A stretch of 64,000 nucleotides of DNA, from NCBI GenBank assembly GCA_902764145.1, contig CACWUS010000002.1:69493-133492 (forward strand), given 5' to 3'. How positions within the stretch are numbered: position 1 is the first letter of the stretch; every line of letters starts with the position of its first letter. This document shows, one piece after another, positions 447-21,316 of this stretch. The notes below the pieces were generated by a model that was given only the letters and a program-made list of their open reading frames with translations, was not told where the DNA came from and did no database searches. Source of the stretch: an uncultured Erysipelotrichaceae bacterium. Its GTDB lineage: Bacteria > Bacillota_I > Bacilli_A > RF39 > UBA660. Made by a program: the position numbers and the translations under genes.

Positions 447-3053
447 ATGAAAAATGACATTTTAAAAAGAATACAAAATTATGCCCTTGAAGAAATAATG
501 GGTGATAGATTTGGTTCATATGCTAAAGAAATAATATTAGATAGAGCCATTCCAGATGTAAGAGATGGATTAAAACCAGTCCAAAGAAGAATTCTATATG
601 CAATGTATAAAGCAGGAAATACTTGGGATAAAAGTTATATTAAATGTGCAGCAACAGTTGGAGATGTATTAGGTAAATTCCATCCACATGGTGATTCAAG
701 TGTTTATGATGCTATGGTTCGTATGAGCCAATGGTGGAAACAAAATCATATATTAGTTGATATTCAAGGTAATAATGGATCAATAGATGGAGATTCTGCT
801 GCTGCATATCGTTATACAGAAGCACGTCTTGCTAAAATAAGTGGAGAATTACTTGGAGATTTAGATAAAAATACAGTTAAATGGGCTCCAAACTTTGATG
901 ATAGATTTCTAGAGCCTACTGTTCTTCCTGCAAAATTCCCTAATTTACTTGTTAATGGATCAAATGGAATTTCAGCAGGTTATGCAACAAATATTCCACC
1001 TCATAATTTAAGTGAAATAATTGATGCGACTATTAAGAGAATAGATTCACCTAATTCACGACTTGACACAATTTTAGAAATAGTAAAAGGTCCTGATTTT
1101 CCAACTGGTGGAATAGTAGAAGGAAAACAAGGAATAATAGATGCATTTACAACTGGACGTGGAAAGGTAATTGTTAAAAGTAAAACAGAATTTAAAAAAG
1201 AAAAAGGTAAGGAACAAATCATTATTCATGAAATACCTTTTGAAGTTAATAAAGCTTTATTAGTTCAGAAAATAGATTCACTAAGAATAGATAAAAAAAT
1301 AGATGGAATAAGTGAAGTAAGGGATGAAACTGATAGAGAAGGACTTAGAATAGTTATAGATTTAAAAAGTGGAGCAAATAAGGATTTAGTATTAAATTAT
1401 TTACTTAAAAATACAGATTTACAAGTATCATACAATTATAATATGGTAGCTATTGTCAATAGAACACCTAAAACACTTGGTATTATTCCAATAATAGATG
1501 CTTATATTGAACACTTTAAAGAAGTAATTACTAAGAGAACAGAATTTGATCTTGCAGCATATAAGAAAGAATATAATATTGTTTCAGGATTAATTAAAGC
1601 AATATCTATATTAGATGAAGTAATTAAAACAATTCGTGCTAGTAAGAATAAAGTTGATGCTAAATATAATTTAGTTGATAAATATAAATTTACAGAAGAA
1701 CAAGCAGAAGCAATTGTAATGTTACAATTATATAAATTAACAAATACTGATATTGTTACATTAGAAGAAAGAAGTAAAACATTACAAGAACTAATTAAAG
1801 AATGTGAACATATTTTAGAAGATGAAAATGAACTTAAAAATGTAATGAAAAATGAACTTCGTGAAATTAAAAAGACATATGGAATACCAAGAAAAACTAT
1901 TATTAAAGATGAAATAACTGAAATAAAAATAGATGAACTTGATATGGTTAGCAAAGATAATTTTGTTGTATGTATATCTGGTGCTGGATATGTTAAAAAG
2001 CATTCAATTAAGGCATTCACAGCAAATGAGAATGAGTATCCCGCTGTTAAAGAAGGGGATTATATTGAAGGTCTTTATAAAGTAAATAACTTAGATACAA
2101 TACTATTATTTACTAATTTAGGCAATTACTTATATGTACCAGTTCATGAAATACCAGAAGCAAAATACAAGGATATTGGAGCACATATATCAAATATTAT
2201 TAAAGTTAGTGATGGAGAAAAAATTGTTAAGTCTATAGCTGTAAATAAATTTGATTCTTCTCCTATAACTTTATTTACTAAATTTGGTATGGTAAAAAGA
2301 GTACCACTTAAAGATTTGGAAGTTAGTCGTTATTCAAAACCAGTTAATTGCATGAAATTAAAGGATGGCGATGAACTTGTTAGTGTAAGTAGATGCGATT
2401 CTGCTGAAACATTAGTCGTAACAAAAGATGGATATGCATTAAAATATAACACTTCAGAAATACCTGTTTTAGGTCTTAAAGCTGGAGGAGTTAAATCAAT
2501 AAAATTAAATGCTGGCAGTGAAGTAATAAGTGCATTTGTAATAAATGAACAAAAAGAGTATCTATGTTTATTTACTGATAGAAATACTGCTAAAAGATTA
2601 CATATTACTGATATTGATAAAACAACTCGTGCTAAAAAAGGAACAAGTATTCTTAAGAGTCCAAAATCAAAACCATATATTATAACTCATGCATTTAATA
2701 TTGGTAGTAAAAATATATTTGGTATTATTGATAAGGAAATAGGATATTTAAAATCAAGTGATATTAGTATTTTAGATAAGTCTTCTACAGGAACAACATT
2801 TACTAAAAAGAATGTAGATGATATATTTATACTTACTAAGTTTACTGACATAACTAATCAAAATAAAGAAATTGAAGAAGCAAAAGAAGAAGCAGTAAAA
2901 ATAGTCAATGATGAAGATATGATTGAAGTTGAGAAAACAGATATTGTAAAAGAAAATAAACCTAAAAAAGAAACAATTATTAAAGTGGAAAAAGAAGAAA
3001 AAAAAGAAACACAATTAACTATGAGTGATTTCTTTGAAGAATTTAAGATTTAG
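447..3053 (+). CDS. parC: DNA topoisomerase IV subunit A with Lys/Glu-rich C-terminal tail
   Basis: 868 aa. N-terminus QRRILYAMY...HPHGDSSVYDAMVRMSQWW...NNGSIDGD..AAYRYTEARL matches the ParC/GyrA catalytic region (active-site Tyr region present). Gene order parE-parC. Confidence 0.8.
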   Translation: MKNDILKRIQNYALEEIMGDRFGSYAKEIILDRAIPDVRDGLKPVQRRILYAMYKAGNTWDKSYIKCAATVGDVLGKFHPHGDSSVYDAMVRMSQWWKQNHILVDIQGNNGSIDGDSAAAYRYTEARLAKISGELLGDLDKNTVKWAPNFDDRFLEPTVLPAKFPNLLVNGSNGISAGYATNIPPHNLSEIIDATIKRIDSPNSRLDTILEIVKGPDFPTGGIVEGKQGIIDAFTTGRGKVIVKSKTEFKKEKGKEQIIIHEIPFEVNKALLVQKIDSLRIDKKIDGISEVRDETDREGLRIVIDLKSGANKDLVLNYLLKNTDLQVSYNYNMVAIVNRTPKTLGIIPIIDAYIEHFKEVITKRTEFDLAAYKKEYNIVSGLIKAISILDEVIKTIRASKNKVDAKYNLVDKYKFTEEQAEAIVMLQLYKLTNTDIVTLEERSKTLQELIKECEHILEDENELKNVMKNELREIKKTYGIPRKTIIKDEITEIKIDELDMVSKDNFVVCISGAGYVKKHSIKAFTANENEYPAVKEGDYIEGLYKVNNLDTILLFTNLGNYLYVPVHEIPEAKYKDIGAHISNIIKVSDGEKIVKSIAVNKFDSSPITLFTKFGMVKRVPLKDLEVSRYSKPVNCMKLKDGDELVSVSRCDSAETLVVTKDGYALKYNTSEIPVLGLKAGGVKSIKLNAGSEVISAFVINEQKEYLCLFTDRNTAKRLHITDIDKTTRAKKGTSILKSPKSKPYIITHAFNIGSKNIFGIIDKEIGYLKSSDISILDKSSTGTTFTKKNVDDIFILTKFTDITNQNKEIEEAKEEAVKIVNDEDMIEVEKTDIVKENKPKKETIIKVEKEEKKETQLTMSDFFEEFKI

Positions 3054-3078
3054 GAAGTAGAAATACTTCCTTTTTATT
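3053..3078 (+). terminator. Rho-independent terminator after parC
   Basis: GGAAGTAGAAATACTTCC hairpin followed by TTTTTATT, overlapping the parC stop codon. Confidence 0.7.
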
Positions 3079-3126
3079 GACTTAAATATCTTTTTATGTT
3101 AATATTAGTATCGAACTTCAAGTTAT

Positions 3127-3203
3127 GGCGAGTTTGGTGAAGTGGTTAACACGGCGGATTGTGGTCCCGTTATGCGTGGGTTCGATTCCCACATCTCGCC
3201 CCA
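3127..3203 (+). tRNA. tRNA-His (anticodon GTG) with encoded G-1 and CCA
   Basis: Hand-folded cloverleaf: G-1 pairs with C73. Acceptor stem GCGAGTT/ATCTCGC, D-loop AAGTGGTTAA, anticodon loop TTGTGGT (GTG). T-arm GTGGG-TTCGATT-CCCAC, 3' CCA. Confidence 0.85.
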
Positions 3204-3405
3204 TTAATTGATAGTAATGGTAATTATGTTTATGATCGTCATTCGTTTATTAATTTTCATGGAACTGGTAAAAATTCTCTTTTTCTGTGATAAAATATTA
3301 TATAGATATAGTGATTGCTACGATAAATAGCATAAATGTAAAACAATGTTGCTGTTATTAAATGAGACATCAATGTAGAATTAAAGTCAGAAAGAAGGAG
3401 ATATT

Positions 3406-3981
3406 ATGACACTAGGTCAAAAATTAAAAGAGATAAGAAAAAGATTTGGATTATCTCAAGAAAGTCTTGCTGAAATAATGAATGTTTCAAGACAAGCAAT
3501 AACTAAATGGGAAAGTGATGAAGGACTTCCAGATGTAAGCAATTTACAAGAATTATCAAAAGTATTTAATCTTACGGTTGATTATTTATTAGATAATGAT
3601 AATTCATTACCTGCTTTATCTATGAAGAAAGAATTAGATAAAGATAAATATGAAATGAATGGAAAGGGTTATAAACAAATATTAAAAGAATATTATACTG
3701 AGCCTTGGGAAATTTATGAATTATTAAGAAGTGAAAATAAAGGCAGGCTTGCTAGTATTGTAAGTGACTTTATAATTGGTGCGGGTGCAATGGAAACTAT
3801 AGATGCATTAAATGATATAACACCATATTATTTAATAAAAAAAGATGGTTTAAAATTACTAGTAAATATTCATGATTATATTCTTGAGGTAATTGAATTG
3901 CCTGAAAACATTAATGATAAGAAATTCATATATGGTAAAAATAAGTTTAAACAATTTAAAAAATTAGAATTAACAAAATAA
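3406..3981 (+). CDS. XRE-family HTH transcriptional regulator with uncharacterised C-terminal domain
   Basis: N-terminus LSQESLAEIMNVSRQAITKWESDEGLPDVSNLQELSKVFNLTVDYLL is a Cro/C1-type HTH. RBS AAGGAG is 7 nt upstream of the ATG. Confidence 0.7.
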   Translation: MTLGQKLKEIRKRFGLSQESLAEIMNVSRQAITKWESDEGLPDVSNLQELSKVFNLTVDYLLDNDNSLPALSMKKELDKDKYEMNGKGYKQILKEYYTEPWEIYELLRSENKGRLASIVSDFIIGAGAMETIDALNDITPYYLIKKDGLKLLVNIHDYILEVIELPENINDKKFIYGKNKFKQFKKLELTK

Positions 3982-4249: not shown

Positions 4250-5107
4250 GTGAAAAAATTATTTGGTGGAATTAATTTGACTTGGATGAAATTAATTATA
4301 TTTGCAATATTAGCAGGTGTTTATACAGGTATAATGGCAATGCTACCAATAGCAATGGATACATCATTTAGTGATTTGACGGTTACATTTGAAGTATGGA
4401 TTTTCTTTGGAATAATCATTATAATGAATAGTAAATCTGCAAAAGATTCGGCATTAAAATGTTTTGTGTTTTTCTTAATAAGTCAGCCATTGGTATATTT
4501 AGTTCAAGACGTAATAAATCATAGTAATTTGTTTTTAACTTACTATAGATTTTGGGTTCTTTGGACAATTGCGTGTATTCCAATGGGCTTTATTGGATAT
4601 TATATGAAAAAAGATAAATGGTGGGGATTATTAATTCTTGTACCTATGCTAGTTTTTACAGCAGCAGAATGTTCAGGGTACTTCTCTGAAACTATGTTTT
4701 CTTTTCCAAGACATTTATTAACTACTATTTTTTGTATATGCATGTTAATAATTTATCCATTAGCTATATTTAAAAATAAAAAAATAAAAACGACTGGTGT
4801 AATAATAAGTGGATTGTTGATTGCTATAGTATTAGTTGTATGTATATGCAATCCTCCTATATATAGTACAGATATATTATTTAATGGTGAAAAATATCAA
4901 TTTGATGATTCCTATAGGGTTTATTTAACAGATAAAAAATATGGAGATTTAAGTGTTAAATATGAGGCGGCAATAGAAGATTGGGTAATTCATGCAGACT
5001 TTAAGAAAGCAGGAAAGACTGAAATGATTTTGGAAGATAAAGAAGGAAATAAAACTACATTTGATGTATCAATAAGAAGATCCTCATATGATGTGAAAAA
5101 AAAGTAA
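4250..5107 (+). CDS. Polytopic membrane protein, function unknown
   Basis: 285 aa with about 7 hydrophobic helices and a soluble C-terminal about 90 aa. No recognisable motif. Confidence 0.5.
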   Translation: MKKLFGGINLTWMKLIIFAILAGVYTGIMAMLPIAMDTSFSDLTVTFEVWIFFGIIIIMNSKSAKDSALKCFVFFLISQPLVYLVQDVINHSNLFLTYYRFWVLWTIACIPMGFIGYYMKKDKWWGLLILVPMLVFTAAECSGYFSETMFSFPRHLLTTIFCICMLIIYPLAIFKNKKIKTTGVIISGLLIAIVLVVCICNPPIYSTDILFNGEKYQFDDSYRVYLTDKKYGDLSVKYEAAIEDWVIHADFKKAGKTEMILEDKEGNKTTFDVSIRRSSYDVKKK

Positions 5108-5201
5108 AAAATATTATTTTTAATTTATATAAATAATATTGTATAATAGTTTAGTACTAGTTAACCTACACATCCTAGTATAAAAAAGGGAAGGAGAGAA
5201 A

Positions 5202-5864
5202 ATGAATATATTTTATGGATTTATTAATATTATAGTAGTATTTAGTTTTGTAGTATTAATAGAAAAATTATTTAAAAGAGAAGGCTTATATGTGTGGCTT
5301 AGTATAGCAATTATACTTGCAAACTTGACTGTATGTAAAATGATTGATGTGTTTGGTTTTACTACAAGTTTAGGCAATGTACTATTTGCTTCAACTTTTT
5401 TAGCAACAGACATTATGTCTGAAAAATACAGTAAGGAAGATGCTAAGAAAGGAATATATATAAGTTTATTTAGTGGTATCACATTTATAATAGTTACGCA
5501 AATAACTCTTTTGTTTATTCCAAGTGCTGATGATGTTGTGAGTGATGCTATGAAAACTTTATTTAATGTTAGCATTAGAACAACTTTTGCAAGTATGCTT
5601 ATGTTTTTTATAAGTAATATGATGGATATTCATATTTATAATTATTTAAAAGTAAAATATCCAAACAAATTGTGGTTTAGAAATAATTTATCAACAATAT
5701 TGTGTAATTGTTTAGAAAACTACTTATTTAATTTTTTAGCTTTTGTAGGAATATTTTCTGTTCCTGTTATTATTTCAATAGCTACTACAACAACAATTAT
5801 AGAAATAGTAATTGCTTTATGTGATACACCATTTTTATATATTTCTAAATGGTTAAGAGAATGA
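5202..5864 (+). CDS. YhhQ/VUT-family queuosine-precursor transporter-like membrane protein
   Basis: 220 aa. Segments VFGFTTSLGN...FLATD and DIHIYNYLKVKYPNKLWFRN align with E. coli YhhQ (LGFHTTWG...FLATD, DVHVFNRLRQSRRWW) as recalled from memory. Confidence 0.55.
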   Translation: MNIFYGFINIIVVFSFVVLIEKLFKREGLYVWLSIAIILANLTVCKMIDVFGFTTSLGNVLFASTFLATDIMSEKYSKEDAKKGIYISLFSGITFIIVTQITLLFIPSADDVVSDAMKTLFNVSIRTTFASMLMFFISNMMDIHIYNYLKVKYPNKLWFRNNLSTILCNCLENYLFNFLAFVGIFSVPVIISIATTTTIIEIVIALCDTPFLYISKWLRE

Positions 5865-5955
5865 TTGCAATCAATAGACAATTATTTAGAATTCGCAGTT
5901 AAAAATCATTTTAAATATACAGAATATAATCTAGAAGAAGTTTTAATAAAGAGAT

Positions 5956-5988
5956 AAAAAAGATTAGAAATTAATTCTAATCTTTTTT
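5956..5988. terminator. Bidirectional terminator between convergent genes
   Basis: AAAAAGATTAGAA-TTAA-TTCTAATCTTTTTT is a perfect hairpin flanked by A-run and T-run. Confidence 0.65.
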
Positions 5989-5998
5989 AAATAGTAAA

Positions 5999-6580
5999 TT
6001 ATAATTTATCTGGAATTAGTTTATCCATATAATTTAGTAATTCTTCTTTTGTATAATTCTCGGTACCTGTTAACCATGAAATTCCAATATTAATTATTCC
6101 ACCTGCATAAAATTTAACAATAACATCAAGTGGTAAATTAGTTTCTTTAATGTCATTAATATTTTTTAATCTTACTAATGCATCTTTTTCTATTACATCT
6201 ATTAGAATATCAATTAAAAAGCCATTTTTATTATACGTTATAATTGCACTATAGATTTCTCTATTATTATCAATATAATCTATCAAAACACTTAGTAATT
6301 TCATTATGTATTTCTTTGATGATAATTCTGTTTCTTTTAATTCAAGTTCATTTAATAATAATTGTTTTTGATTTTCAAACAAATCAATTAATAATTCATA
6401 TTTATCTTCATAATGCGCATAAAAAGTTGAACGATTAATAAGTGCTTCTTCACATATATCTGATATTTTAATTTTTTCAAAATTTTTTTGTTTCATTAAT
6501 TTAAGTAATGTATCAAATAATATTTTTTTTGTTTTAATTACTCTTAGATCATTTTTTCTAGTCATTTTTAAACACCTCAT
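5999..6580 (-). CDS. TetR/AcrR-family transcriptional regulator
   Basis: 193 aa. N-terminus KKILFDTLLKLMKQKNFEKIKISDICEEALINRSTFYAHYEDKYELL is a TetR HTH. Divergent from the MMPL transporter gene. Confidence 0.8.
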   Translation of the reverse strand: MRCLKMTRKNDLRVIKTKKILFDTLLKLMKQKNFEKIKISDICEEALINRSTFYAHYEDKYELLIDLFENQKQLLLNELELKETELSSKKYIMKLLSVLIDYIDNNREIYSAIITYNKNGFLIDILIDVIEKDALVRLKNINDIKETNLPLDVIVKFYAGGIINIGISWLTGTENYTKEELLNYMDKLIPDKL

Positions 6581-6617
6581 GCCTAATTATAGTTTTTAAT
6601 TAGTAAAAAGTCAAATA

Positions 6618-6677
6618 ACATACAAATTGTATGATAAATATACATATACATTTTAAAAAATGTTGGATAACCAACAT
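6618..6677. promoter_or_regulatory. Two palindromes in the TetR/MMPL divergent intergenic region (candidate operators)
   Basis: ACATACAAATTGTATGA (6+1+6 palindrome) and ATGTTGGATAACCAACAT (7-bp arms with 4-bp spacer) lie between the divergent starts. Confidence 0.4.
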
Positions 6678-6738
6678 ATATATAATCATGATGTGGTATT
6701 TAATTTCTCATTATAATAAAATATATTGTCGAGGTGAA

Positions 6739-8814
6739 ATGATGAATAAGTTTTCAAATTTTGTAGTAAATAATAAAAAAATAATTTTACTTTTAAGTTT
6801 GATATTATTAATACCAGCTATAATTGGTTATTTATTAACTAAAACAAATTATGATGTTTTAGTATATTTACCAAGTGATATTGAAACTTTAAAAGGTCAA
6901 AATATATTGAAAGATGATTTCAATATGGGTGCTTTTTCTGTTTCTTTAGTAGATAATGATATAAGTGATAAAGAATTAATGACGTTAGAAAATAAAATTA
7001 GAGAAATAGATTGTGTCACTAATGTTATCAGCATAAATGATATTACAGGAACTACTATACCAATAGAAATATTACCTAAAAAAATAATTGATCATGTTGT
7101 AAGTAAAGATTCAAAGTTAATATTAATTACCTTTTCAACTGGTACTAGTGATGAAGAAACTACTGATGCTGTAAAAGAAATAGAAGAGCTTTCTAATAGC
7201 ATTAAGGTTGGTGGTATGAGTGCAATGTCTTTGGATACTAGAAAATTAGTTGAAAGCCAAACTTTTGCTTATGTGGCTGTAGCTGTAGTTTTTTGTTTAG
7301 TAGTATTAATGTTATCTTTAGATTCATATATAGTACCAATATTATTACTTATTAATATTGGAATATCAATTCTATATAATATGGGAAGCAATTTGCTTTT
7401 AGGAGAAATATCATATATTACAAAAGCAATAGCTGCTGTTTTACAATTAGGTGTTACGACAGATTTTTCTATATTCTTGTATCATAAATATGAAGCTGCT
7501 AAAAAAGATAATAAATCAAATGATGAAGCAATGAATAATGCAATTAATGAAACAATGGTTTCTGTAATTGGTTCATCACTTACAACAATTGCTGGATTCT
7601 TGGCATTATGTAGTATGAAATTTGGTCTTGGAAAAGATATTGGTTTAGTAATGGCAAAAGGTGTTTTATTTGGTGTTTTAACAGTATTAACTATTTATCC
7701 AGTATTACTTTTAATATTTGATAAATGGATACAAAAAACAAAACATAAACCATTGATACCTGAGTTTAAATTTGTTAAGCCAATTGTTTTGAAAGGATAT
7801 AAATGGATTTTTATTATATTTTTAATCTTATTAATTCCTGCATATTTATCTCAAAAAAATACTGAAGTTTATTATAAATTAGATTCATCTATTCCAGAAG
7901 ATTATAATTATTCAATTGTTAGTAAAAAATTAATGAATGAATATGGTCTTATATCACAATCGATGGTTTTGGTTCCATCATCTTTAAGCAATTCTAGTAT
8001 GAGTAAAATGATTGATGAAATTAATGATATAGATGGTATTGATAGTGTGATATCAACTAGTTTGCTTAATAAATATGGTATTTCAGATAATGCAATACCT
8101 TCAAAATTAAAAAGTGTTTTGGAAAGTGATAAATATAAGTTGTTGCTTATTAATTCTAATTATGAAATAGCTAGTGATGAACTAAATAATCAGATTGAAA
8201 AGATTAATTCAATAATTAAAAAGTATGATAGTAATTCAATTCTGGCAGGTGAAGGACCTTTAATGAATGATTTAGTTGAAATAACAGCGATTGATTTTAG
8301 AAATGTAAATTATGTTTCAATTGGAATTATTTTCTTCATAATGTTTTTTGTTTTAAAATCATTAAGTTTACCATTACTACTTGTATTATCTATTGAATTT
8401 GCAATATTTATAAATATGGGTGTGCCTTATTGGCATGGAACTAGTATTCCATTTATATCTTCTATAGTTATTGGGACAATACAATTAGGAGCTACAATAG
8501 ATTATGCAATTTTGATGACTACAAAATATTTAGAAGAAAGAAAAAAAGGCGTGGATAAAAAAACAGCTATGGGTGAAGTTTTGAGTTCATCTGTATCATC
8601 AATTTTTGTAAGTGCTATGTGCTTCTTTGCAGCAACAATTGCTGTATTTGCAATATCTAAAATAGATATGATTAGTTCTATATGTCTATTAATCGCAAGA
8701 GGTGCAATTATAAGTATGTTAGTTGTTATGTTTGTTGTTCCTAGTGTGTTATTAATGTTTGATAAATTAATAATTAAAACTACATTAGGATTTAAGAAAG
8801 GAATGAGAATATGA
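6739..8814 (+). CDS. MMPL-family (RND-superfamily) membrane transporter
   Basis: About 690 aa. N-terminal TM, a large extracytoplasmic domain, a 5-TM bundle, then a second extracytoplasmic domain and 5-TM bundle. Start moved from the track's 6631 to the ATGATG after the GAGGTG RBS. Confidence 0.7.
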   Translation: MMNKFSNFVVNNKKIILLLSLILLIPAIIGYLLTKTNYDVLVYLPSDIETLKGQNILKDDFNMGAFSVSLVDNDISDKELMTLENKIREIDCVTNVISINDITGTTIPIEILPKKIIDHVVSKDSKLILITFSTGTSDEETTDAVKEIEELSNSIKVGGMSAMSLDTRKLVESQTFAYVAVAVVFCLVVLMLSLDSYIVPILLLINIGISILYNMGSNLLLGEISYITKAIAAVLQLGVTTDFSIFLYHKYEAAKKDNKSNDEAMNNAINETMVSVIGSSLTTIAGFLALCSMKFGLGKDIGLVMAKGVLFGVLTVLTIYPVLLLIFDKWIQKTKHKPLIPEFKFVKPIVLKGYKWIFIIFLILLIPAYLSQKNTEVYYKLDSSIPEDYNYSIVSKKLMNEYGLISQSMVLVPSSLSNSSMSKMIDEINDIDGIDSVISTSLLNKYGISDNAIPSKLKSVLESDKYKLLLINSNYEIASDELNNQIEKINSIIKKYDSNSILAGEGPLMNDLVEITAIDFRNVNYVSIGIIFFIMFFVLKSLSLPLLLVLSIEFAIFINMGVPYWHGTSIPFISSIVIGTIQLGATIDYAILMTTKYLEERKKGVDKKTAMGEVLSSSVSSIFVSAMCFFAATIAVFAISKIDMISSICLLIARGAIISMLVVMFVVPSVLLMFDKLIIKTTLGFKKGMRI

Positions 8815-14555: not shown

Positions 14556-16217
14556 ATGGATGGTGTAAATATGAAAAAAACATTAAAGATATTAACAAGT
14601 ATATTAATAGTACTTTGGATTTTAATTGGAGCATATTTTCTTTATGATAAATATAGAAATAAAGAGTTATCTGGAGAAAAAATATTTGATGGAATGTATC
14701 TATATAAATTAGATGTAGGAGATCAAACCCATGGAGTTAGAGTATATGATAAAAATATATATTATTGGATAGAAAATAATAATGGTTTTGATTTTTATAA
14801 AATCAATATCTATAATAATAAAAGTACTAAAATAGGTGATTTACATGGAAAAGATTTTTATTGTTATTTTGAAGAAGACTACATTGAATGTTCGAATGAT
14901 GATAAAATGATTCTTTATGATTTTAATTTTAAAAAATTATATGAAGGTGACATTAAAACAGTAATACCTTATAAAAAGAAATTAATGAAGTTTGAAAATA
15001 ATACCATTTATTATGATGATAAAAAATTTAAAATAGTAAAAGAGGATTTAACAGAATATAATTATTATCGTCATGAATCTTTTGATAATAATATCTATTT
15101 ATTCTTTTCTGGTTATAGAGATTTAGGCGGTTGTTTATTAAATGTAATGGATAATAAATGTGAAGATTATTCATATACTAATGTAAAAAAGTATAATAAT
15201 GGTTTATATTTTATAGATAAAGAAAATATTAAAATTCTTGATGTAAATACAAAAAAAATAAAAGAATATAAAAATCCATTTGATGATGCATTATTAGCAT
15301 TAAGTCAATTATATAATAATAAATTATATAATTTTGTAGATGATTATTTAAAAATATATAATTTAGATAATAACAAAGTTAGTTTTTTAGATTATAGATT
15401 AAATGAATATATTGATGATATATATCTAAATGATGGCTTATTATATTTAATTGAGTCAGATAGAGTATATATAGTAAATTTAAACGAAATAATTCTTGAA
15501 GAAATGACTTACAAGGAGTTAGAGACAAAGTTAAATAATAGACTAATTGATAGAATTAATAGTATTAAAAATGATTATAATGTCGAGATTAAGATAAAAG
15601 AAGAAGCAGACTTGAAATTTATGATAGGTGAAAGATCATATGATCTTATAAATGATTCATTAGATTATACAGAAGAAGTTTTTAAAATGTTTGGAAGTGA
15701 TTTTTTTAAAGAGTTTATTCATGATGAATATAAGGGATTAAGAATTTATTTAACAAGCGAAATACAGTCAAATGACTTTAGTAAAAGTGGTGAAGCATTT
15801 AGATATTATGACAATTATGCTATTATTGCTAATTCATCTGAATATAAGAGAACACTATGTCATGAATTATTGCATTCATTAGAAGATGCTGCTAGTGTAA
15901 AAGATAAACTTATGTTCACAAAATGGAATAAATATAATCCAAAAGATTTTAACTATAAAATTATTTTTCAAGATTATGAGGAACCTTATAAATACACTAT
16001 TAACTATGGAAAAGGTGATGTTTATTTTATAGATAATTATTCACAAACTAATGAGCATGAAGATAGAGCTAGAATATTTGAAAACATTTGTATGAATACT
16101 ACTTCTGACATTAAAGATAATAAATATTTATTAAAGAAGGCAGAATATGAAAAAAGTGAAATATTAAAATATTATCCTATTTTAAAAGATACAGTCATAT
16201 TTGATAGTTTAAAATAA
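14556..16217 (+). CDS. Membrane-anchored protein with C-terminal HExxH zincin-like motif
   Basis: 553 aa. N-terminal TM (ILTSILIVLWILIGAYFLY). HELLH in the context KRTLCHELLHSLEDAAS. No other family recognised. Confidence 0.4.
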   Translation: MDGVNMKKTLKILTSILIVLWILIGAYFLYDKYRNKELSGEKIFDGMYLYKLDVGDQTHGVRVYDKNIYYWIENNNGFDFYKINIYNNKSTKIGDLHGKDFYCYFEEDYIECSNDDKMILYDFNFKKLYEGDIKTVIPYKKKLMKFENNTIYYDDKKFKIVKEDLTEYNYYRHESFDNNIYLFFSGYRDLGGCLLNVMDNKCEDYSYTNVKKYNNGLYFIDKENIKILDVNTKKIKEYKNPFDDALLALSQLYNNKLYNFVDDYLKIYNLDNNKVSFLDYRLNEYIDDIYLNDGLLYLIESDRVYIVNLNEIILEEMTYKELETKLNNRLIDRINSIKNDYNVEIKIKEEADLKFMIGERSYDLINDSLDYTEEVFKMFGSDFFKEFIHDEYKGLRIYLTSEIQSNDFSKSGEAFRYYDNYAIIANSSEYKRTLCHELLHSLEDAASVKDKLMFTKWNKYNPKDFNYKIIFQDYEEPYKYTINYGKGDVYFIDNYSQTNEHEDRARIFENICMNTTSDIKDNKYLLKKAEYEKSEILKYYPILKDTVIFDSLK

Positions 16218-16287
16218 AAAATTCACATAATTTTGACATTATACCATAAATATGTTATAATATGTGCGTTTTAAAAAGGGGGATAAT

Positions 16288-17073
16288 ATGAAAAATATTC
16301 ATAATACAAATTTAGGAAATAAGATAATTATTTCAAAGAAATGTTTTCATAGAGAAGATTTAAAACCAGAATTTAATAAATATGAAACTAAAGAGGAAAA
16401 AAGATTAATTAAAAGCGAGGCTAAATATATTTATAGTAAGCTTCTTAATAGTGAAAATAATAGTTACTATAGTATAATTGATTCTGCAATTATTAGAATT
16501 AATTGTTATAGTGTTGCATATAATAGTCAAGTATTTACATCAAGTGGTAAATTAATTAATGAAACAGATACACTAATGGAATATGAATATGGATATAATC
16601 CATATTATTATAAAAAACTAGTTTCTGAATTAAATAAATTAGCAAGAAAAGACAATTTATTTTTAGATATATCTTTAAAAGAAAAACGTGATATGGGTAC
16701 ATATATTATTGTTATTTCTTCATTAACGAAAGAACAATTTGAAGGAATATATGAAATTACATTAGATCAATATTATGAATCTATGACTAAAAAATCTAAA
16801 AAAGGATATACTAAAGAAGAATCTAGATTTAGAAGTGAAATTGAAAAATTAAGAGAATCATATATCGAATTCATGATTGCTGATATAAATAAAGGATTTG
16901 ATAAGTCTGATATTGAAATGGATGGTTATATAGCATATTTACAAATATCTTGTAAATATAGCAGTATAGATAATAAAGAAGAGATTCTTAGAGAATATGG
17001 TTTTGAGTTAAATGAACAAAATCAATCATTAGTTTTAAAGTCAAATAGAGAGTTAACGTTAGAATTAAAATAA
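16288..17073 (+). CDS. Hypothetical protein
   Basis: ATG preceded by the GGGGGATAA RBS. The track's 16264 start is an upstream GTG extension. Confidence 0.45.
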   Translation: MKNIHNTNLGNKIIISKKCFHREDLKPEFNKYETKEEKRLIKSEAKYIYSKLLNSENNSYYSIIDSAIIRINCYSVAYNSQVFTSSGKLINETDTLMEYEYGYNPYYYKKLVSELNKLARKDNLFLDISLKEKRDMGTYIIVISSLTKEQFEGIYEITLDQYYESMTKKSKKGYTKEESRFRSEIEKLRESYIEFMIADINKGFDKSDIEMDGYIAYLQISCKYSSIDNKEEILREYGFELNEQNQSLVLKSNRELTLELK

Positions 17074-17110
17074 TAACTAGTTAAATTAAAAAGAGGGGGC
17101 AAATAATAAA

Positions 17111-17482
17111 ATGTTTGTAAGGTTAACATCTGGTGAAATATTATTAGTAGATAGTGAAGAAGAATTAATTAATTATTCAGAATTTAGATATAGCAATAAT
17201 ATTTTAGATTTATTAGAAGAAGAAGACTTAGTTAGAATTGAATATTTCTCACCTAGACATAATAAAAGAATTACACGATTGTTTATAGTTGATGAAATAT
17301 CTAATGATAGACAATTTATTACAATTAATAATGGGCATATGCACTTTTTAATCAGTGAAAATGATTTTTTAGGAAATGATAAAAAATTAGAACCTACAAT
17401 AAAATCATTCATTCCAAGAGAAAAGTTATTAGAAAGTGAATGTAATTTAACAGAAGAGAAAGAAAAAACATTGAAGTTATAA
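17111..17482 (+). CDS. Hypothetical protein
   Basis: 123 aa. RBS AGAGGGGG upstream. Confidence 0.45.
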   Translation: MFVRLTSGEILLVDSEEELINYSEFRYSNNILDLLEEEDLVRIEYFSPRHNKRITRLFIVDEISNDRQFITINNGHMHFLISENDFLGNDKKLEPTIKSFIPREKLLESECNLTEEKEKTLKL

Positions 17483-17612
17483 AAAGATGGTTATGATAAT
17501 GTAACTTATATTGAGTACTTTATCAAACCTTTTTTATTGGTTAAATTTAATTCAATTAAAAAACTATATAATTATTTATAAAAATGATATATAATATTAT
17601 CAGGAGGTAAAA

Positions 17613-18281
17613 ATGAAGAAATATTTAATTGTACTATTTTTATTAGTTATTTTACTTGGAGTAACAGGATGCAAATCTAATAAATATGCATTAGAGTTTA
17701 AAGAAGAATATGAAAGTATAAATGGTACTACTAATAATAGTGGTAAAGTGCATAGAACAATTATTATTCCAAAAGATAATCCTTTTCATAAAGTTGAACA
17801 AAAAGAAATTGTTAAGATGATTGAAGAAGGAAAAACATTCTATTTATATGTTGGAGATCCTTTATGTCCATGGTGCAGAAGTGTACTTGAAAAGTCAATT
17901 GAAGTTGCTAAGAAAAAAGGCGTTAAAGAAATTTATTATATTGATATATGGGATGATAATGGTAATGAAATATTAAGAGATAAATATGAATTAAAAGACG
18001 GTTCTTTAGAAAAAACTGTAGAAGGAACAGAAGAATATAAAAAATTATTGAAATATTTTGACTCTGTTTTAACTAAATACACATTAACAGATAGTGATGG
18101 AAATAAAGTTGATACAGGTGAAAAAAGAATATATGCTCCTAACTTTTTCTATGTTGAAAAAGGAAAAGTAATTAGACTTGTAGAAGGAATTTCTGACAAG
18201 CAAAAAGATTCAAGAGAAGAATTAACAAAAGAAATGTTAGATGATGAACAAAAAATATTTGAAGATTTTTTTGATAATTAA
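17613..18281 (+). CDS. Thioredoxin-fold lipoprotein (CxxC)
   Basis: Lipobox LLGVTGC after the signal peptide. CPWC motif in GDPLCPWCRSVLEK. RBS AGGAGG. Confidence 0.65.
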   Translation: MKKYLIVLFLLVILLGVTGCKSNKYALEFKEEYESINGTTNNSGKVHRTIIIPKDNPFHKVEQKEIVKMIEEGKTFYLYVGDPLCPWCRSVLEKSIEVAKKKGVKEIYYIDIWDDNGNEILRDKYELKDGSLEKTVEGTEEYKKLLKYFDSVLTKYTLTDSDGNKVDTGEKRIYAPNFFYVEKGKVIRLVEGISDKQKDSREELTKEMLDDEQKIFEDFFDN

Positions 18282-18299
18282 TAATTATTGTAGTATAAT
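18272..18299 (+). promoter_or_regulatory. Sigma-A-type promoter for the retron ncRNA/RT
   Basis: TTGATA-17 nt-TATAAT overlapping the stop of the upstream lipoprotein gene. Coordinates +/-3. Confidence 0.55.
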
Positions 18300-18302
18300 A
18301 TA

Positions 18303-18470
18303 AGTGCAGTAGTGATTGGAATTATTTTCCTACTTTAACGAGTCGTTAAGGGACTTAGTTGCCTAAACTAATAAATTGTAATATTTCAAAGTACCAATCT
18401 ATACTTCGTATAGCGCGCTTCGCTTAAGTACATTTCCATATTACAATATTTAAAGTACTGCAAGGGAGGT
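18303..18470 (+). ncRNA. Candidate retron msr-msd non-coding RNA
   Basis: The 196-nt non-coding gap directly 5' of a retron RT on the same strand. Hairpins TTAAC-GAGTC-GTTAA, CTATAC-TTC-GTATAG and GCG-CTT-CGC. A 31-nt imperfect hairpin GTACATTTCCATATTACAATATTTAAAGTAC. Short inverted repeats TGCAGTA...TACTGCA and ATTGTAATAT...ATATTACAAT as possible a1/a2. Exact ends unknown. Confidence 0.45.
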
Positions 18471-18477
18471 AGTAAAA

Positions 18478-19428
18478 ATGTGGAAATACATTGGAAAAAA
18501 AGAATGTAATGAATTTTTACTATCTCTTTTTTTAATTGATGAAAAAGATAGTAAAAAATATATAAACAAATTATATTCAATTTCTAATAATATAGATAAT
18601 AATTATAGAATTTATAAAATAAAAAAAAGAAATGGTAAATTAAGAACTATATATGAACCTAATAGTACTTTAAAATATATTCAAAAACAAATACTTAAGA
18701 ATGTTTTAGAAGAAAAACATATATCTTCTTTTGCTAAAGCATATCATAAAGGAGTATCTTTAAAGGATAATGCTTTAGTTCATGTTAATAAAAAAATAAT
18801 ATTAAAATTAGATATTAAAAATTTCTTTGATAACATTAGTTTTTATCAAGTATACAATTCTTGTTTTCCAATTGAATATTATCCAAAGTCTGTTGGAATG
18901 ATTTTAACGTATTTATGCACATATGATGGACATTTAACTCAAGGCAGTCCAACTTCATCTTATATATCAAATTTAGTTATGAGAGATTTTGATGAAGAAA
19001 TTGGAAATTATTGTGTAAATAATAATATTTCTTATAGTAGATATTCTGATGATATGACTTTTTCTGGTGACTTTGATGTTAGTGAATTAATTATAAAAGT
19101 TAGAAAAATGCTATTAAAATTAGGATTTGAACTTAACAAAGATAAAATAAGTATTATAAATAAATCTAGATCTCAGAATGTAACTGGTCTTGTTGTTAAT
19201 GAAAAAGTGCAAGTTTGTAAAAAATATAGAAATAAAATTAGACAAGAAATATATTATATAAAGAAGTTTGGTATTGAATCACATCTAAAAAAAATTAACT
19301 CTTCTTTAACAAAAGAAGATTATATTAAAAAGTTGTTGGGTAGGATTTTGTATGTTCTACAGATTGATGAAAACAATAAAGAATTTTTAGAATACAAAAA
19401 ATATATTAAATTTTTAAATGGGAATTAA
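18478..19428 (+). CDS. Retron-type reverse transcriptase
   Basis: 316 aa. RT motifs 1-7: RIYKIKKRNGKLRTIYEP, AYHKGVSLKDNALVH, LDIKNFFDNIS, LTQGSPTSSYISN, YSRYSDDMTFS (YxDD). Also the retron-specific QNVTGLVVNEKV (VTG) motif. Weak terminator GGAATTAATATTCC plus T6 after the stop. Confidence 0.85.
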   Translation: MWKYIGKKECNEFLLSLFLIDEKDSKKYINKLYSISNNIDNNYRIYKIKKRNGKLRTIYEPNSTLKYIQKQILKNVLEEKHISSFAKAYHKGVSLKDNALVHVNKKIILKLDIKNFFDNISFYQVYNSCFPIEYYPKSVGMILTYLCTYDGHLTQGSPTSSYISNLVMRDFDEEIGNYCVNNNISYSRYSDDMTFSGDFDVSELIIKVRKMLLKLGFELNKDKISIINKSRSQNVTGLVVNEKVQVCKKYRNKIRQEIYYIKKFGIESHLKKINSSLTKEDYIKKLLGRILYVLQIDENNKEFLEYKKYIKFLNGN

Positions 19429-19481
19429 TATTCCTGTTTTTTAATTGTATTATGATATAATATTTATAAGGAGATGTTAAT

Positions 19482-19979
19482 ATGAAAAAAGTAATTGTTA
19501 TTGGCTGTCCCGGCTCTGGAAAAAGTTATTTTTCTAAAAAATTAAAAGTACTTGTTAATATCCCTTTATATCATTTGGATATGATATATCATAAAAAAGA
19601 TGGAAGCCAAATATCTAAAGAAGAATTTGATAGTATATTAGATAATATTATGAGTAAAGATGAATGGATACTAGATGGTAATTATCAGAGAACTTTGGAA
19701 AAAAGACTTGAAAAAAGTGATACAGTATTTTTGCTTGATTATAGTACGGATGTATGTATTAAAGGCGCTAATGAAAGAATTGGAACAAAAAGAGATGATT
19801 TACCTTGGGTAGAAAATGAACTTGATAAAGAATTTGAACAAAGAATAATTAATTTTAATAATGAAAAGTTACCATTAATATATAAATTGCTAGATAAGTA
19901 TAATGATAAAAATATTATTATTTTTAAAACAAGAGAACAATCAAGTGATTATTTAGAAAAACTGAAAGAAGGAATTTAA
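19482..19979 (+). CDS. P-loop NTPase, adenylate-kinase-like (topology-modulation/FlaR-like family)
   Basis: Walker A GCPGSGKS at the N-terminus, 165 aa, DGNYQRTLEKRL. Own extended -10 (TGATATAAT) upstream. Confidence 0.65.
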   Translation: MKKVIVIGCPGSGKSYFSKKLKVLVNIPLYHLDMIYHKKDGSQISKEEFDSILDNIMSKDEWILDGNYQRTLEKRLEKSDTVFLLDYSTDVCIKGANERIGTKRDDLPWVENELDKEFEQRIINFNNEKLPLIYKLLDKYNDKNIIIFKTREQSSDYLEKLKEGI

Positions 19980-19980
19980 T

Positions 19981-20937
19981 ATGGTAGATAGTCATTATGA
20001 TTTATTAAGTATTTGTTATAAATGTTATTTATTAAATGATTATAGCTTAATAGAAAAGTATTCAAAAGAAATAATGTCTTCTGGTGTAAAATGTATATTT
20101 GCTAATTTATATTTTATGAGTGAGGAAGAAATGAAAGATGAATTACATCCTAATTACTATAATAAAGATATTTCAATATTAGAAATGTTTAGAATTTCTA
20201 AAAAAATATTATTATCATATTTACCTAATATTGATTTTGTATTTAGTATTGAAGGTTGTGATTATATAAAAGTTAATGAATTAGAAGACTTATATAATGA
20301 AGGATTAAGATCAATATTACTTGTTTGGAACAATGAAAATATCTATGGTTCTGGAGTCAAAACTAATAAGCATTTAACTTCTCTTGGAAAAGAGTTTTTG
20401 CAAGAAGCAATAAGACTTGGTATTGGAATTGATTTGTCACATGCTAATGAGGAAACGTTTTATGATATGATTGATGTTATAAAAGAGAATATTGAAAATG
20501 GACAAAATGTTATATGTTATGCAAGTCATTCTAATTCAAGAAAACTTTGGGACATAAGAAGAAATTTGACTGATAGACAGTTAGAATGTATTAGAGATGT
20601 TAATGGTTATGTTGGTGCAATATCAAATGTTCATTTTGTAGATGCACTTAATTGTTCTTTTGAAAATAAAAGCAAAGAATATTTGAAACATATTATTCAT
20701 ATAGCGAGCATTATTGGTAAAGATAAAGTAATGTTATCTACAGATGATATGAGATTTTATTCTGATTATGATAAAAGTTATCTTAATGCACCAATATATC
20801 AATACACAAGTGTTAAAGAAGATATAGAAAGAGAATTATTAACATTTTTTAACAGAACAGATACAGATAATATTTTATATAATAATGGATATAGAATATA
20901 TAGTGAACTTTTAAATAAACAAATGATAAGGAGTTAA
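19981..20937 (+). CDS. Peptidase M19 (membrane/renal dipeptidase) family protein
   Basis: HYD at the N-terminus, IEGCDY, GIGIDLSHANE, CYASHSNSRKLWDIRRNLTDRQL and STDDM. These match the M19 metal-binding and catalytic segments (H-x-D, E, H, H) as recalled for DPEP1. Confidence 0.7.
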   Translation: MVDSHYDLLSICYKCYLLNDYSLIEKYSKEIMSSGVKCIFANLYFMSEEEMKDELHPNYYNKDISILEMFRISKKILLSYLPNIDFVFSIEGCDYIKVNELEDLYNEGLRSILLVWNNENIYGSGVKTNKHLTSLGKEFLQEAIRLGIGIDLSHANEETFYDMIDVIKENIENGQNVICYASHSNSRKLWDIRRNLTDRQLECIRDVNGYVGAISNVHFVDALNCSFENKSKEYLKHIIHIASIIGKDKVMLSTDDMRFYSDYDKSYLNAPIYQYTSVKEDIERELLTFFNRTDTDNILYNNGYRIYSELLNKQMIRS

Positions 20938-20938
20938 T

Positions 20939-21316
20939 ATGAAAATAAATAAAAAACAAGTTATTTTTATATATAATCAGGAAGAATTTGTTGCAAGAGT
21001 AAATGAAATAGTAAATACTATTGAAAAATTATTCAGTAGTTATTATGATATGTCTAAATATGAAAGATTTTCTTTATTGAAAGTGTTCTATGATTTTGAT
21101 TTTGAAAAAGAAGATAAAACTATTGATGAAATAATTGATTATTTTGATAGTACACATTCATTAATTGATGTTTATCAAGATATAAAAGGATATTTAGCAA
21201 TATTTATTTATGAAATAAATAGAAATGCAAATACAACAGAAGAGGAAGACATATCCTTAAAATTAAAGTATTATTATAATACTACTTTTAAACAAAAACA
21301 AAGAATGATTGAATAA
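20939..21316 (+). CDS. Hypothetical protein
   Basis: 125 aa, acidic. Overlapping start-stop with the upstream gene. Confidence 0.4.
   Translation: MKINKKQVIFIYNQEEFVARVNEIVNTIEKLFSSYYDMSKYERFSLLKVFYDFDFEKEDKTIDEIIDYFDSTHSLIDVYQDIKGYLAIFIYEINRNANTTEEEDISLKLKYYYNTTFKQKQRMIE

Follow-up and report, generated by a model that had tools for sequence, protein, structure and literature searches.

Retrons are now regarded as three-part anti-phage systems. The Ec107 branch is the main exception to this view: it makes msDNA, as Ec107 itself does, but is not known to have an effector or function, a question that goes back to the 1990s. It was described in 2020 as a set of stand-alone cassettes of msr, msd and reverse transcriptase (RT) (Mestre et al. 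2020, PMC7736814). A 2026 survey of SPIRE metagenomes found the group, there labelled 'clade2_Ec107like', mostly in host-associated Bacillota and with no recurrent accessory module (bioRxiv 10.64898/2026.05.14.725207). Three effector-less clade-2 retrons, census terminals 430 (Clostridium sp. KLE 1755), 443 (Budvicia aquatica) and 482 (Ruminococcus flavefaciens), gave RT-DNA in E. coli in amounts 0.65-2.3 times those of Eco1, and the RT-DNA sequenced for terminals 430 and 443 starts a few nt 5' of a2 and extends back as far as the position just 3' of the hairpin called stem-loop 2 below (Khan et al. 2024).

The locus described here lies in the window, by which we mean the whole 64-kb stretch of DNA that was analysed. 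Very probably it is a stand-alone retron, intact and belonging to the Ec107 (Retron-Eco5) branch of RT clade 2; its host is an uncultured low-GC member of the Bacilli or 'Tenericutes', and it sits in the core chromosome (Table 1). The initial annotation had proposed a retron with a promoter-driven msr-msd RNA, and this is borne out by retron RT matches, covarying RNA and the promoter. Its suggestion of an unclassified architecture does not hold, since RT and RNA both place in the Ec107 branch, clade 2 of Mestre et al., published in 2020 in just this stand-alone form. The locus is thus one more Ec107-like retron of a group that is already described and functionally unexplained; it is a clean, well-conserved example from a low-GC gut or rumen bacterium whose lineage is already catalogued. 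Like Ec107, it is flanked by housekeeping genes, lies outside prophage and has no recurrent accessory gene, whereas its host (25% GC) and its insertion site are different.

Table 1 Features of the retron locus and its downstream boundary (window coordinates).
Feature	Position	Strand	Remarks
Self-contained retron unit	18271-19443	+	Promoter, ~160 nt structured RNA, 316-aa RT, terminator-like hairpin
Sigma-70-type promoter	18271..18299	+	TTGATA 18271-18276, 17-nt spacer, TATAAT 18294-18299
a1, 5' arm of terminal inverted repeat, TGCAGTA	18305..18311	+	Pairs with 18456-18462
Predicted branching (priming) G	18312	+	Directly 3' of a1, context UA-G-(U/C)G
msr stem-loop 1, GGAA-TTATT-TTCC	18318..18330	+	Length and sequence vary between lineages
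msr stem-loop 2, CUUUAACG-AGU-CGUUAAGG (DNA CTTTAACG-AGT-CGTTAAGG)	18333..18351	+	CGAGUCG core conserved
Predicted msd, template for roughly 90 nt msDNA	18363..18455	+	5' boundary approximate
msd stem	18375-18384/18438-18447	+	Covarying helix
GTAC/GTAC helix of msd	18391-18394/18428-18431	+	4 bp, 100% of cells paired
msd tip hairpins	18399-18413 and 18415-18423	+	Part of msd
a2, 3' arm of terminal inverted repeat, TACTGCA	18456..18462	+	RT ribosome-binding site GGAGG (18465-18469) directly after
Retron RT, Ec107-like, no fused effector domain	18478..19428	+	316 aa
Terminator-like hairpin AAAUGGGAAU-UAAU-AUUCCUGUUU with U run	19416..19443	+	Overlaps RT stop codon; fold z -3.3
Extended -10 box TGATATAAT of downstream P-loop/M19 operon	19453..19461	+	Read from sequence; outside retron, sets downstream boundary
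P-loop protein, 165 aa	19482-19979	+	53 nt past RT; 'DNA topology modulation' family, 1.5e-39, below cut-off

The reverse transcriptase

The RT matches Pfam RVT_1 at 9e-23, with no extra domain in Pfam, and its best 25 PADLOC matches are retron RTs without exception (25/25). The RT_Ec107-like model scores it at 417 bits (1e-125), 67 bits above the best RT_III-A model (350 bits). The same model gave 437 bits for the E. coli Ec107 RT and 385-453 bits for five relatives, and the best III-A model always falls 50-134 bits lower, in the window RT as in these others. Aligned over 304 aa with the E. coli Ec107 RT, the window RT shows 41% identity (E 8e-83), and both proteins are ~316-319 aa long without a fused domain. 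Judged by profile scores and identity, the RT groups with that of Ec107 instead of with other retron types. Type III-A1 retrons (clade 2, with PRTase-like and winged-helix proteins) are the sister group of the Ec107 branch, and the RT_III-A models rank second for the window RT.

Three motifs, NAxxH, Y(S/C)DD and VTG, do not vary among 17 family members, one of which is Ec107; the window RT carries them as NALVH, YSDD and VTG, and residues N98, H102, Y189, D191, D192, T236 and G237 are invariant (n=17). The catalytic box is Y-S-DD here but Y-C-DD in Ec107. The initial annotation had named a retron RT with VTG, which agrees with the top matches in PADLOC, in NCBIfam and among solved structures, where the closest relative is the Ec86 RT (5e-33).

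The msr-msd RNA and its transcription unit

Next to the RT lies an RNA of retron layout, in which a1/a2 enclose msr hairpins and a long msd stem-loop. An ordinary MAFFT alignment of 19 related loci served to test its helices by RNAalifold and pair counts. In the proposed helices 85.3% of cells are paired, compared with 71.1% in shuffles, and changes on both sides occur in 34/42 pairs, compared with 19.3 (0/500 shuffles were as good); when the 3' partner is slid by 1-3 columns, pairing falls to 28-46%. Folded as a single sequence, the leader is only weakly better than shuffles (z -1.7), so the support for the RNA is comparative, not thermodynamic. A covariance model (R1) built on 19 low-GC Bacilli sequences only, without any E. 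coli sequence, detects the E. coli Ec107 msr-msd at full length (65.7 bits, E 3.5e-9); the K-12 locus that lacks the retron and loci with other RT types give no match. The RNA features are common from E. coli to Bacilli. An Rfam scan of 17000-20500 gave no meaningful match and no intron, only chance matches (E 2.6 and 9.5).

Two inverted repeats had been offered as a1/a2 candidates in the initial annotation. The pair TGCAGTA/TACTGCA is a1/a2, with 97.7% of cells paired and compensatory changes in 7/7 pairs, while the other, ATTGTAATAT/ATATTACAAT, forms the base of the msd stem. An automatic a1/a2 search by longest inverted k-mer chose chance AT-rich pairs in several loci and was dropped. The repeat is 7 bp long, compared with 16 bp in Ec107. 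G18312, in an invariant column (G14) of the same 19-locus alignment, has its aligned counterpart in GGCAAUA-G-CGUUU of the Ec107 msr from E. coli, and by this homology we infer it to be the priming site.

Most of the hairpins that the initial annotation had listed upstream of the RT are likewise retained. Stem-loop 2 (8 bp, 94% of cells paired, compensatory changes in 7/8 pairs), the GTAC helix and the CTATAC-TTC-GTATAG hairpin (6 bp, 92%) are 92-100% paired; GCG-CTT-CGC (3 bp) is paired in 50% of cells and present only in a subset of loci. At stem-loop 1 each printed relative carries a hairpin whose stem sequence differs, as seen by eye, and indels bring pairing in the MAFFT columns down to 65%; Ec107 has CCGGC...GCCGG at this place. 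The reverse complement of the msd folds into a Y-shaped DNA hairpin (z -2.3).

The order of elements is that of Ec107: a1, a branching G in UAG(C/U)G, a variable hairpin, the GCGAGUCGC hairpin, the msd CAAUGUAC...GUACAUUUCC core, and a2. Ec107 has the GCGAGUCGC hairpin of stem-loop 2, likely the RT recognition hairpin, as do the clade-2 retrons whose activity Khan et al. showed by experiment. It is also present in one or more III-A1 RNAs, which makes it a mark of clade 2 rather than of the Ec107 branch in particular. The msd core CAAAGUAC...GUACAUUUCC is common to the window, Ec107 and terminals 430 and 443. Terminals 430, 443 and 482 are of the same clade, have no subtype assigned, and have RNAs with the same hairpin and msd core, but they differ in host and sequence; the window retron is outside that census, and the likeness is drawn from RNA, not RT identity.

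The near-consensus promoter that had been noted ahead of the RNA is confirmed as the top match in a scan of 17400-20100, with 11/12 consensus positions. Transcription is predicted to start at ~18305, the first base of a1, and printed relatives inspected by eye have a -10 box, often TGnTATAAT, 6-12 nt 5' of a1. At the other end, the hairpin and U run recur at the equivalent position in the sister species (locus L024) and in locus L027; a consensus terminator scan missed this hairpin because its stem has fewer than three G-C pairs. The extended -10 box beyond it supports separate transcription of the next gene. From promoter and terminator-like hairpin, the retron would be its own transcription unit, and the msr-msd-RT cassette they delimit, a compact ~1.17 kb, is a candidate for RT-DNA production or genome editing.

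We propose that the promoter (18271-18299) would drive a single transcript of msr-msd and RT, ending at the hairpin over the stop codon. The a1/a2 duplex would set G18312 beside the 3' end of the msd, and the RT would bind the conserved CGAGUCG hairpin and prime from the 2'-OH of G18312. Copying of the msd from ~18455 back to ~18363 would then yield a branched msDNA, roughly 90 nt long, whose stem is Y-shaped. Priming, msDNA extent and hairpin recognition are modelled here by homology on Ec107 and the three clade-2 retrons that make RT-DNA. The predicted msDNA of ~90 nt compares with 107 nt in Ec107.

Neighbouring genes and the search for an effector

The flanks are as the initial annotation had given them, a thioredoxin-like lipoprotein upstream (weak PedC/BrcD match) and the P-loop protein followed by an M19 peptidase downstream. 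Its statement that no recognisable effector is fused or adjacent to the RT also stands, with Pfam, PADLOC and neighbour clustering all negative: PADLOC had no match on the 7 flanking genes tested, and no gene cluster is common to RT neighbourhoods across lineages. The comparative genomics of the RT flanks that it had called for found no conserved neighbour between lineages. In the set of 98 neighbours, drawn from 18 loci, PADLOC families are each seen at most twice, and no retron effector family recurs. For the 54 other ORFs of the window, the 25 of 63 matched PADLOC families listed include no retron effector, apart from two ORFs whose match to HTH_VI is of a generic XRE type. Pfam families listed for the 64-kb window are core-genome functions, and in relatives the RT lies beside housekeeping genes, CTP synthase, metG, folC and ychF among them. 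Neither the families listed for the 64-kb window nor the recurrent neighbours in relatives include a recognisable effector, and one may be encoded elsewhere in the genome.

The locus accordingly differs from the three-part defence retrons (types I-XIII) in having no cognate effector gene or fused domain. Unlike types I-A and I-B (ATPase with HNH or Toprim), its flanks hold no ABC/OLD-type ATPase effector in PADLOC, and unlike type III-A, its RT has no adjacent PRTase-like or winged-helix gene, nor is either among the families listed for the 64-kb window.

Several partner candidates occur in single lineages and were rejected after a check of all loci, as they are not common to other lineages. 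These are a 288-aa ATPase in L027, the 86-aa and 354-aa ORFs of L005/L008, and AbiQ in L010. The ATPase is weakly PtuA-like, lies upstream only in the L027-L030 lineage (RT 73% identical) and has no nuclease partner; the 354-aa ORF has no Pfam, PADLOC, NCBIfam, PHROG or solved-structure match.

The immediate neighbour deserves separate consideration. It is very unlikely that the P-loop NTPase at 19482-19979, with or without the M19 peptidase, is a cognate effector and the locus a new three-part retron type. P-loop enzymes are frequent defence effectors, and this gene follows the RT on the same strand after a gap of 53 nt, a position kept in the sister species and in every contig with an identical RT. 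This synteny is, however, of the ordinary close-species kind, all flanking genes being equally conserved, and no homologue was detected in the other related loci. The gene is also preceded by an extended -10 box and a ribosome-binding site of its own, with the terminator-like hairpin between it and the RT, and its product resembles a widespread 'DNA topology modulation'/adenylate-kinase-like family and has no PADLOC match.

For the stand-alone retron that we favour, one may speculate that the RT-msDNA complex senses phage and acts via a partner encoded elsewhere or a host factor. A tentative and rather doubtful proposal is that Ec107-like retrons need no dedicated effector, the RT-msDNA of these bacteria being kept vertically at fixed core-genome positions, where it would act directly on a host process or via a housekeeping protein, not as a toxin guard. 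In that case, the search for the partner or function of orphan retrons might be easier in a host whose gene set is limited. In viral contigs the best relative reaches no more than 40% identity, and none of the 11 viral loci searched gives a match to the RNA model; therefore nothing points to phage carriage.

Conservation, selection and decay

The RT is under purifying selection. Against the sister species its dN/dS is 0.18, compared with 0.08-0.33 for neighbouring genes, and the retron RNA is 91% identical, compared with 65-82% for other intergenic regions and a 44% difference at synonymous sites. The degenerate state that the initial annotation had allowed for is thus not supported: dN/dS resembles that of the neighbouring genes, the catalytic motifs are intact, and conservation of the RNA well exceeds that of other intergenic DNA. 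Retained function also fits the RT-DNA that effector-less clade-2 retrons of Firmicutes yield in E. coli.

These data bear on whether the locus is a decaying type III-A remnant, now without function and without its former PRTase and winged-helix partners, a reading to which we give hardly any credence. Mestre et al. suggested that the Ec107 branch may have lost a PRTase partner (PMC7736814), the III-A models come second at 350 bits, and the RT gene is disrupted by nonsense or frameshift in 3/18 related species representatives, so that the element can be lost. Selection on the RT with every catalytic motif intact and conservation of the RNA with compensatory changes argue against such decay; moreover, family RTs at 45% to 83% identity all retain RNA and ORF, and related effector-less members are active in RT-DNA synthesis. 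That the locus encodes another bacterial RT class (group II intron, DGR, Abi or DRT) with a leader structured by chance has next to no probability and is already refuted. It shares with these the RVT_1 domain alone; in NCBIfam its scores are 173-218 bits with retron models but 52 with the group II intron RT and 48 with Drt2, solved-structure matches are 1e-33 to 1e-11 for retron RTs against 2e-6 for Drt2, the retron-specific NAxxH and VTG are invariant, and the upstream RNA has retron layout and matches Ec107. For orphan retrons such as the intact Ec107-type element described here, the syntenic and pseudogenised relatives could support comparative work.

Reverse transcriptase and upstream RNA

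The initial annotation had read the 316-aa ORF as a retron reverse transcriptase (RT), an identification upheld by PADLOC, NCBIfam, solved structures and a covarying RNA. The window RT matches Pfam RVT_1 at 9e-23, and its best 25 PADLOC matches are all retron RTs, headed at full length by RT_Ec107-like (1e-125) and then RT_III-A (350 bits). Retron models of NCBIfam score 173–218 bits versus 52 for the group II intron RT and 48 for Drt2. The closest solved structures are likewise retron RTs, with Ec86 on top (5e-33), and no extra domain was found in the window RT. Within the RT family no variation is seen in the catalytic or retron-specific motifs, save for the X of YxDD, which is S or C.

Folded singly, the leader was unconvincing (z −1.7), and relatives were therefore used for the RNA test. 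Scanning a single genome of each species yielded 18 loci with RTs 45–83% identical to the window RT, all in uncultured low-GC Bacilli, ‘Tenericutes’ or Clostridia-like MAGs. Their 200-nt RT leaders have a common layout. RNAalifold, run on a plain MAFFT alignment of 19 loci (A1), recovered the a1/a2 helix, the 8-bp CGAGUCG hairpin and the hairpin at the msd tip, with compensatory changes in 19 of the 21 pairs predicted for these three helices. Pairs were also counted on A1 for a fuller hand-drawn structure, in which 85.3% of cells held standard pairs versus 71.1% in shuffles, and 34 of 42 pairs had changed on both sides versus 19.3 in shuffles (0/500 shuffles reached 34). When the 3′ partner was slid by 1–3 columns as a control, paired cells fell to 28–46%. 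An invariant G at 18312 directly follows a1. Two inverted repeats had been proposed as a1/a2: TGCAGTA/TACTGCA does form that helix, while ATTGTAATAT/ATATTACAAT turns out to be the base of the msd stem.

By homology, we infer the steps from transcription start to msd copying as follows: the transcript would begin at ~18305, the 7-bp a1/a2 duplex would present G18312, and the RT would bind stem-loop 2, prime from the 2′-OH of G18312 and copy the msd from ~18455 towards ~18363. In the RT-DNA sequenced from census terminal 443, and approximately in that from 430 (both clade-2 retrons), one end lies a few nt 5′ of a2 and the other just 3′ of stem-loop 2 (Khan et al.). Based upon this extent, an msDNA of ~90 nt is predicted, which folds into a Y-shaped stem (z −2.3). 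With its own promoter, a hairpin and U run at the RT stop codon (a counterpart was seen in two relatives) and a separate box on the next gene, the retron looks like a self-contained transcription unit.

Features of the window retron and of related loci (L-numbered; positions within each locus)
Feature	Position	Strand	Remark
Promoter TTGATA-17-TATAAT	18271-18299	+	Top consensus match of region
a1/a2 helix	18305-18311/18456-18462		97.7% of cells paired (A1)
msr stem-loop 2	18333-18351		94% of cells paired (A1)
GTAC helix			100% of cells paired (A1)
msd tip hairpin			92% of cells paired (A1)
GCG-CTT-CGC hairpin			50% of cells paired; some lineages only (A1)
Retron RT ORF	18478-19428	+	316 aa, RVT_1 + PADLOC
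Hairpin + U run across RT stop codon	19416-19443	+	Fold z −3.3
TGATATAAT box of next gene downstream of RT	19453-19461	+	Separate promoter element
L006 RT	6001-6950		Two nonsense codons: TAG at codon 47, TAA at codon 233
L015 RT	~6001-6926		One frameshift
L018 RT	~6001-6928		Two frameshifts
L027-L030 ATPase	4926-5792	+	288 aa
L027-L030 retron RNA	5807-5991
L027-L030 serine recombinase genes	~6955 onwards	-
L005 added ORFs	6927-8244		86 aa, 354 aa
L008 added ORFs	2175-3492		86 aa, 354 aa
L010 AbiQ gene	5088-5603		7e-39
Window group context			Thioredoxin-like lipoprotein upstream of retron
Second group context			CTP synthase upstream, ZIP transporter downstream
Third group context			metG upstream; folC, thyA, DHFR-like gene downstream
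Other context			ychF

Placement with Ec107

A genuine Ec107 locus was recovered from E. coli as a reference. Of 5,425 complete E. coli genomes, 382 have a split pyrE-slmA junction. In strain E22, which is among them, a 319-aa RT is annotated between slmA and pyrE and is preceded by an RNA identical to the Ec107 RNA in the census supplement of Khan et al. The split junctions are consistent with an insert of the retron Ec107 kind in ~7% of these genomes, one of which was inspected.

Over 304 aa, the RTs of the window and of Ec107 share 41% identity (E 8e-83). RT_Ec107-like scores 437 bits for the Ec107 RT, 417 for the window RT and 385–453 for five relatives, with the top III-A model 50–134 bits lower for all of these. 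A covariance model (R1) built from 19 low-GC sequences only recovers the E. coli Ec107 msr-msd at full length (65.7 bits, E 3.5e-9) and matches a single site in the window, with no match in a retron-free K-12 locus, loci of other RT types or viral loci. Common to Ec107 and the window group are GGCAAUA-G-CGUUU, a GCGAGUCGC hairpin and the msd core UCAUUGUAC...GUACAGUUAC. Because the GCGAGUCGC hairpin was also seen in one III-A1 RNA, we regard it as a mark of clade 2 as a whole rather than of the Ec107 branch alone. Judged by protein identity, profile score and RNA model, the window retron belongs with Ec107.

Stand-alone msr-msd-RT cassettes have been described in the clade-2 branch containing Ec107, which comprises 59 RTs without an associated protein cluster, forms the sister group of the PRTase-linked III-A1 retrons, and led its authors to ask whether effectors are encoded elsewhere or these retrons have another function (Mestre et al. 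2020, PMC7736814). Firmicutes clade-2 entries without a subtype make RT-DNA in E. coli (Khan et al. census). A 2026 SPIRE survey lists 192 ‘clade2_Ec107like’ retrons (178 from Bacillota, 91% host-associated), scores their recurrent accessory architecture as ‘absent’ and gives them low novelty priority (bioRxiv 10.64898/2026.05.14.725207), a description that the window locus fits. The earlier suggestion of an unclassified architecture does not hold, since RT and RNA are of Ec107 type and the branch was published in 2020; the window retron adds one member to an already described group.

Genomic setting, conservation and effector search

The window has a GC content of 25% and, from its gyrB, gyrA, several tRNA synthetases, gatA/gatB, DNA ligase and Ser/Thr kinase genes, reads as core chromosome. 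It opens with the gyrB C-terminus followed by gyrA, and 53 of its 55 ORFs (≥70 aa) lie on the + strand, which suggests a strand-biased core region, possibly close to the replication origin. Records of contigs bearing an identical RT carry the labels STEW18 and PRJEB21624, which we take to be cattle rumen metagenomes.

Selection was tested against the sister species, which has an RT 83% identical and the same synteny. The RT has a dN/dS of 0.18 (five neighbouring genes, 0.08–0.33), 44% of synonymous sites differ, and the a1-to-a2 RNA is 91% identical versus 65–82% for other intergenic regions. Such conservation, together with invariant motifs, argues against the alternative that the retron is degenerate. 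Among 18 related species representatives the RT is disrupted in three (L006, L015, L018), and the RNA upstream remains recognisable. All three may be true pseudogenes, or the frameshifts may be assembly errors; the retron can be lost.

The proposal that no recognisable effector accompanies the RT was confirmed in the flanks, the window families listed and 98 neighbours. Seven flanking genes were tested and matched none of the PADLOC models. Of the other 54 window ORFs, those with a PADLOC match resemble generic ABC ATPases, XRE-type HTH proteins and a Ser/Thr kinase, with no specific retron effector family among the PADLOC and Pfam families listed. Two XRE-type HTH proteins, both outside the genes tested at 14556-21316, match HTH_VI, the type VI retron partner (up to 9e-14), probably through generic HTH_3 similarity. 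Clustering of ORFs around 19 loci gave no cluster common beyond closely related genomes; neighbours are housekeeping genes that vary by lineage. PADLOC, applied to the 98 neighbours (≤3 genes from the RT, 18 loci), matched no family in more than two.

The P-loop gene downstream (165 aa) is kept in the sister species and in all contigs bearing the identical RT, as an effector might be. However, it is separately promoted, resembles a common ‘DNA topology modulation’/adenylate-kinase-like family, and had no homologue detected in loci of other lineages, so that a role as the effector of this retron is highly improbable.

Lineage-specific neighbours

In L010, metG and the retron are separated by an inserted AbiQ gene, and other single neighbours among the 18 loci include a Type IV methyl-directed restriction enzyme match (9e-230) and PbeA. 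From these annotations, a few relatives adjoin other defence genes, none of which recurs. L005 and L008 carry two added ORFs with a 22-nt overlap with the RT stop codon. The 86-aa ORF is PRK13678-like, and the 354-aa ORF matched nothing in Pfam, PADLOC, NCBIfam, PHROGs or solved structures. L006, L011 and L015 are syntenic apart from lacking the pair, which may be a lineage-specific addition to the retron.

The L027-L030 lineage, with an RT 73% identical, is abundant in metagenome assemblies. An AAA_15/AAA_21/SMC_N-type ATPase, not present in any other lineage, ends 15 nt before its retron RNA, weakly matches the PADLOC models PtuA, mad3 and AriA (~1e-15) and lacks a nuclease partner. Serine recombinase genes adjoin the RT and overlap the last few bases of it. 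They belong to two or more distinct mobile elements, accompanied by Mob_Pre or Relaxase genes, and the RT terminator region may be an integration hot spot.
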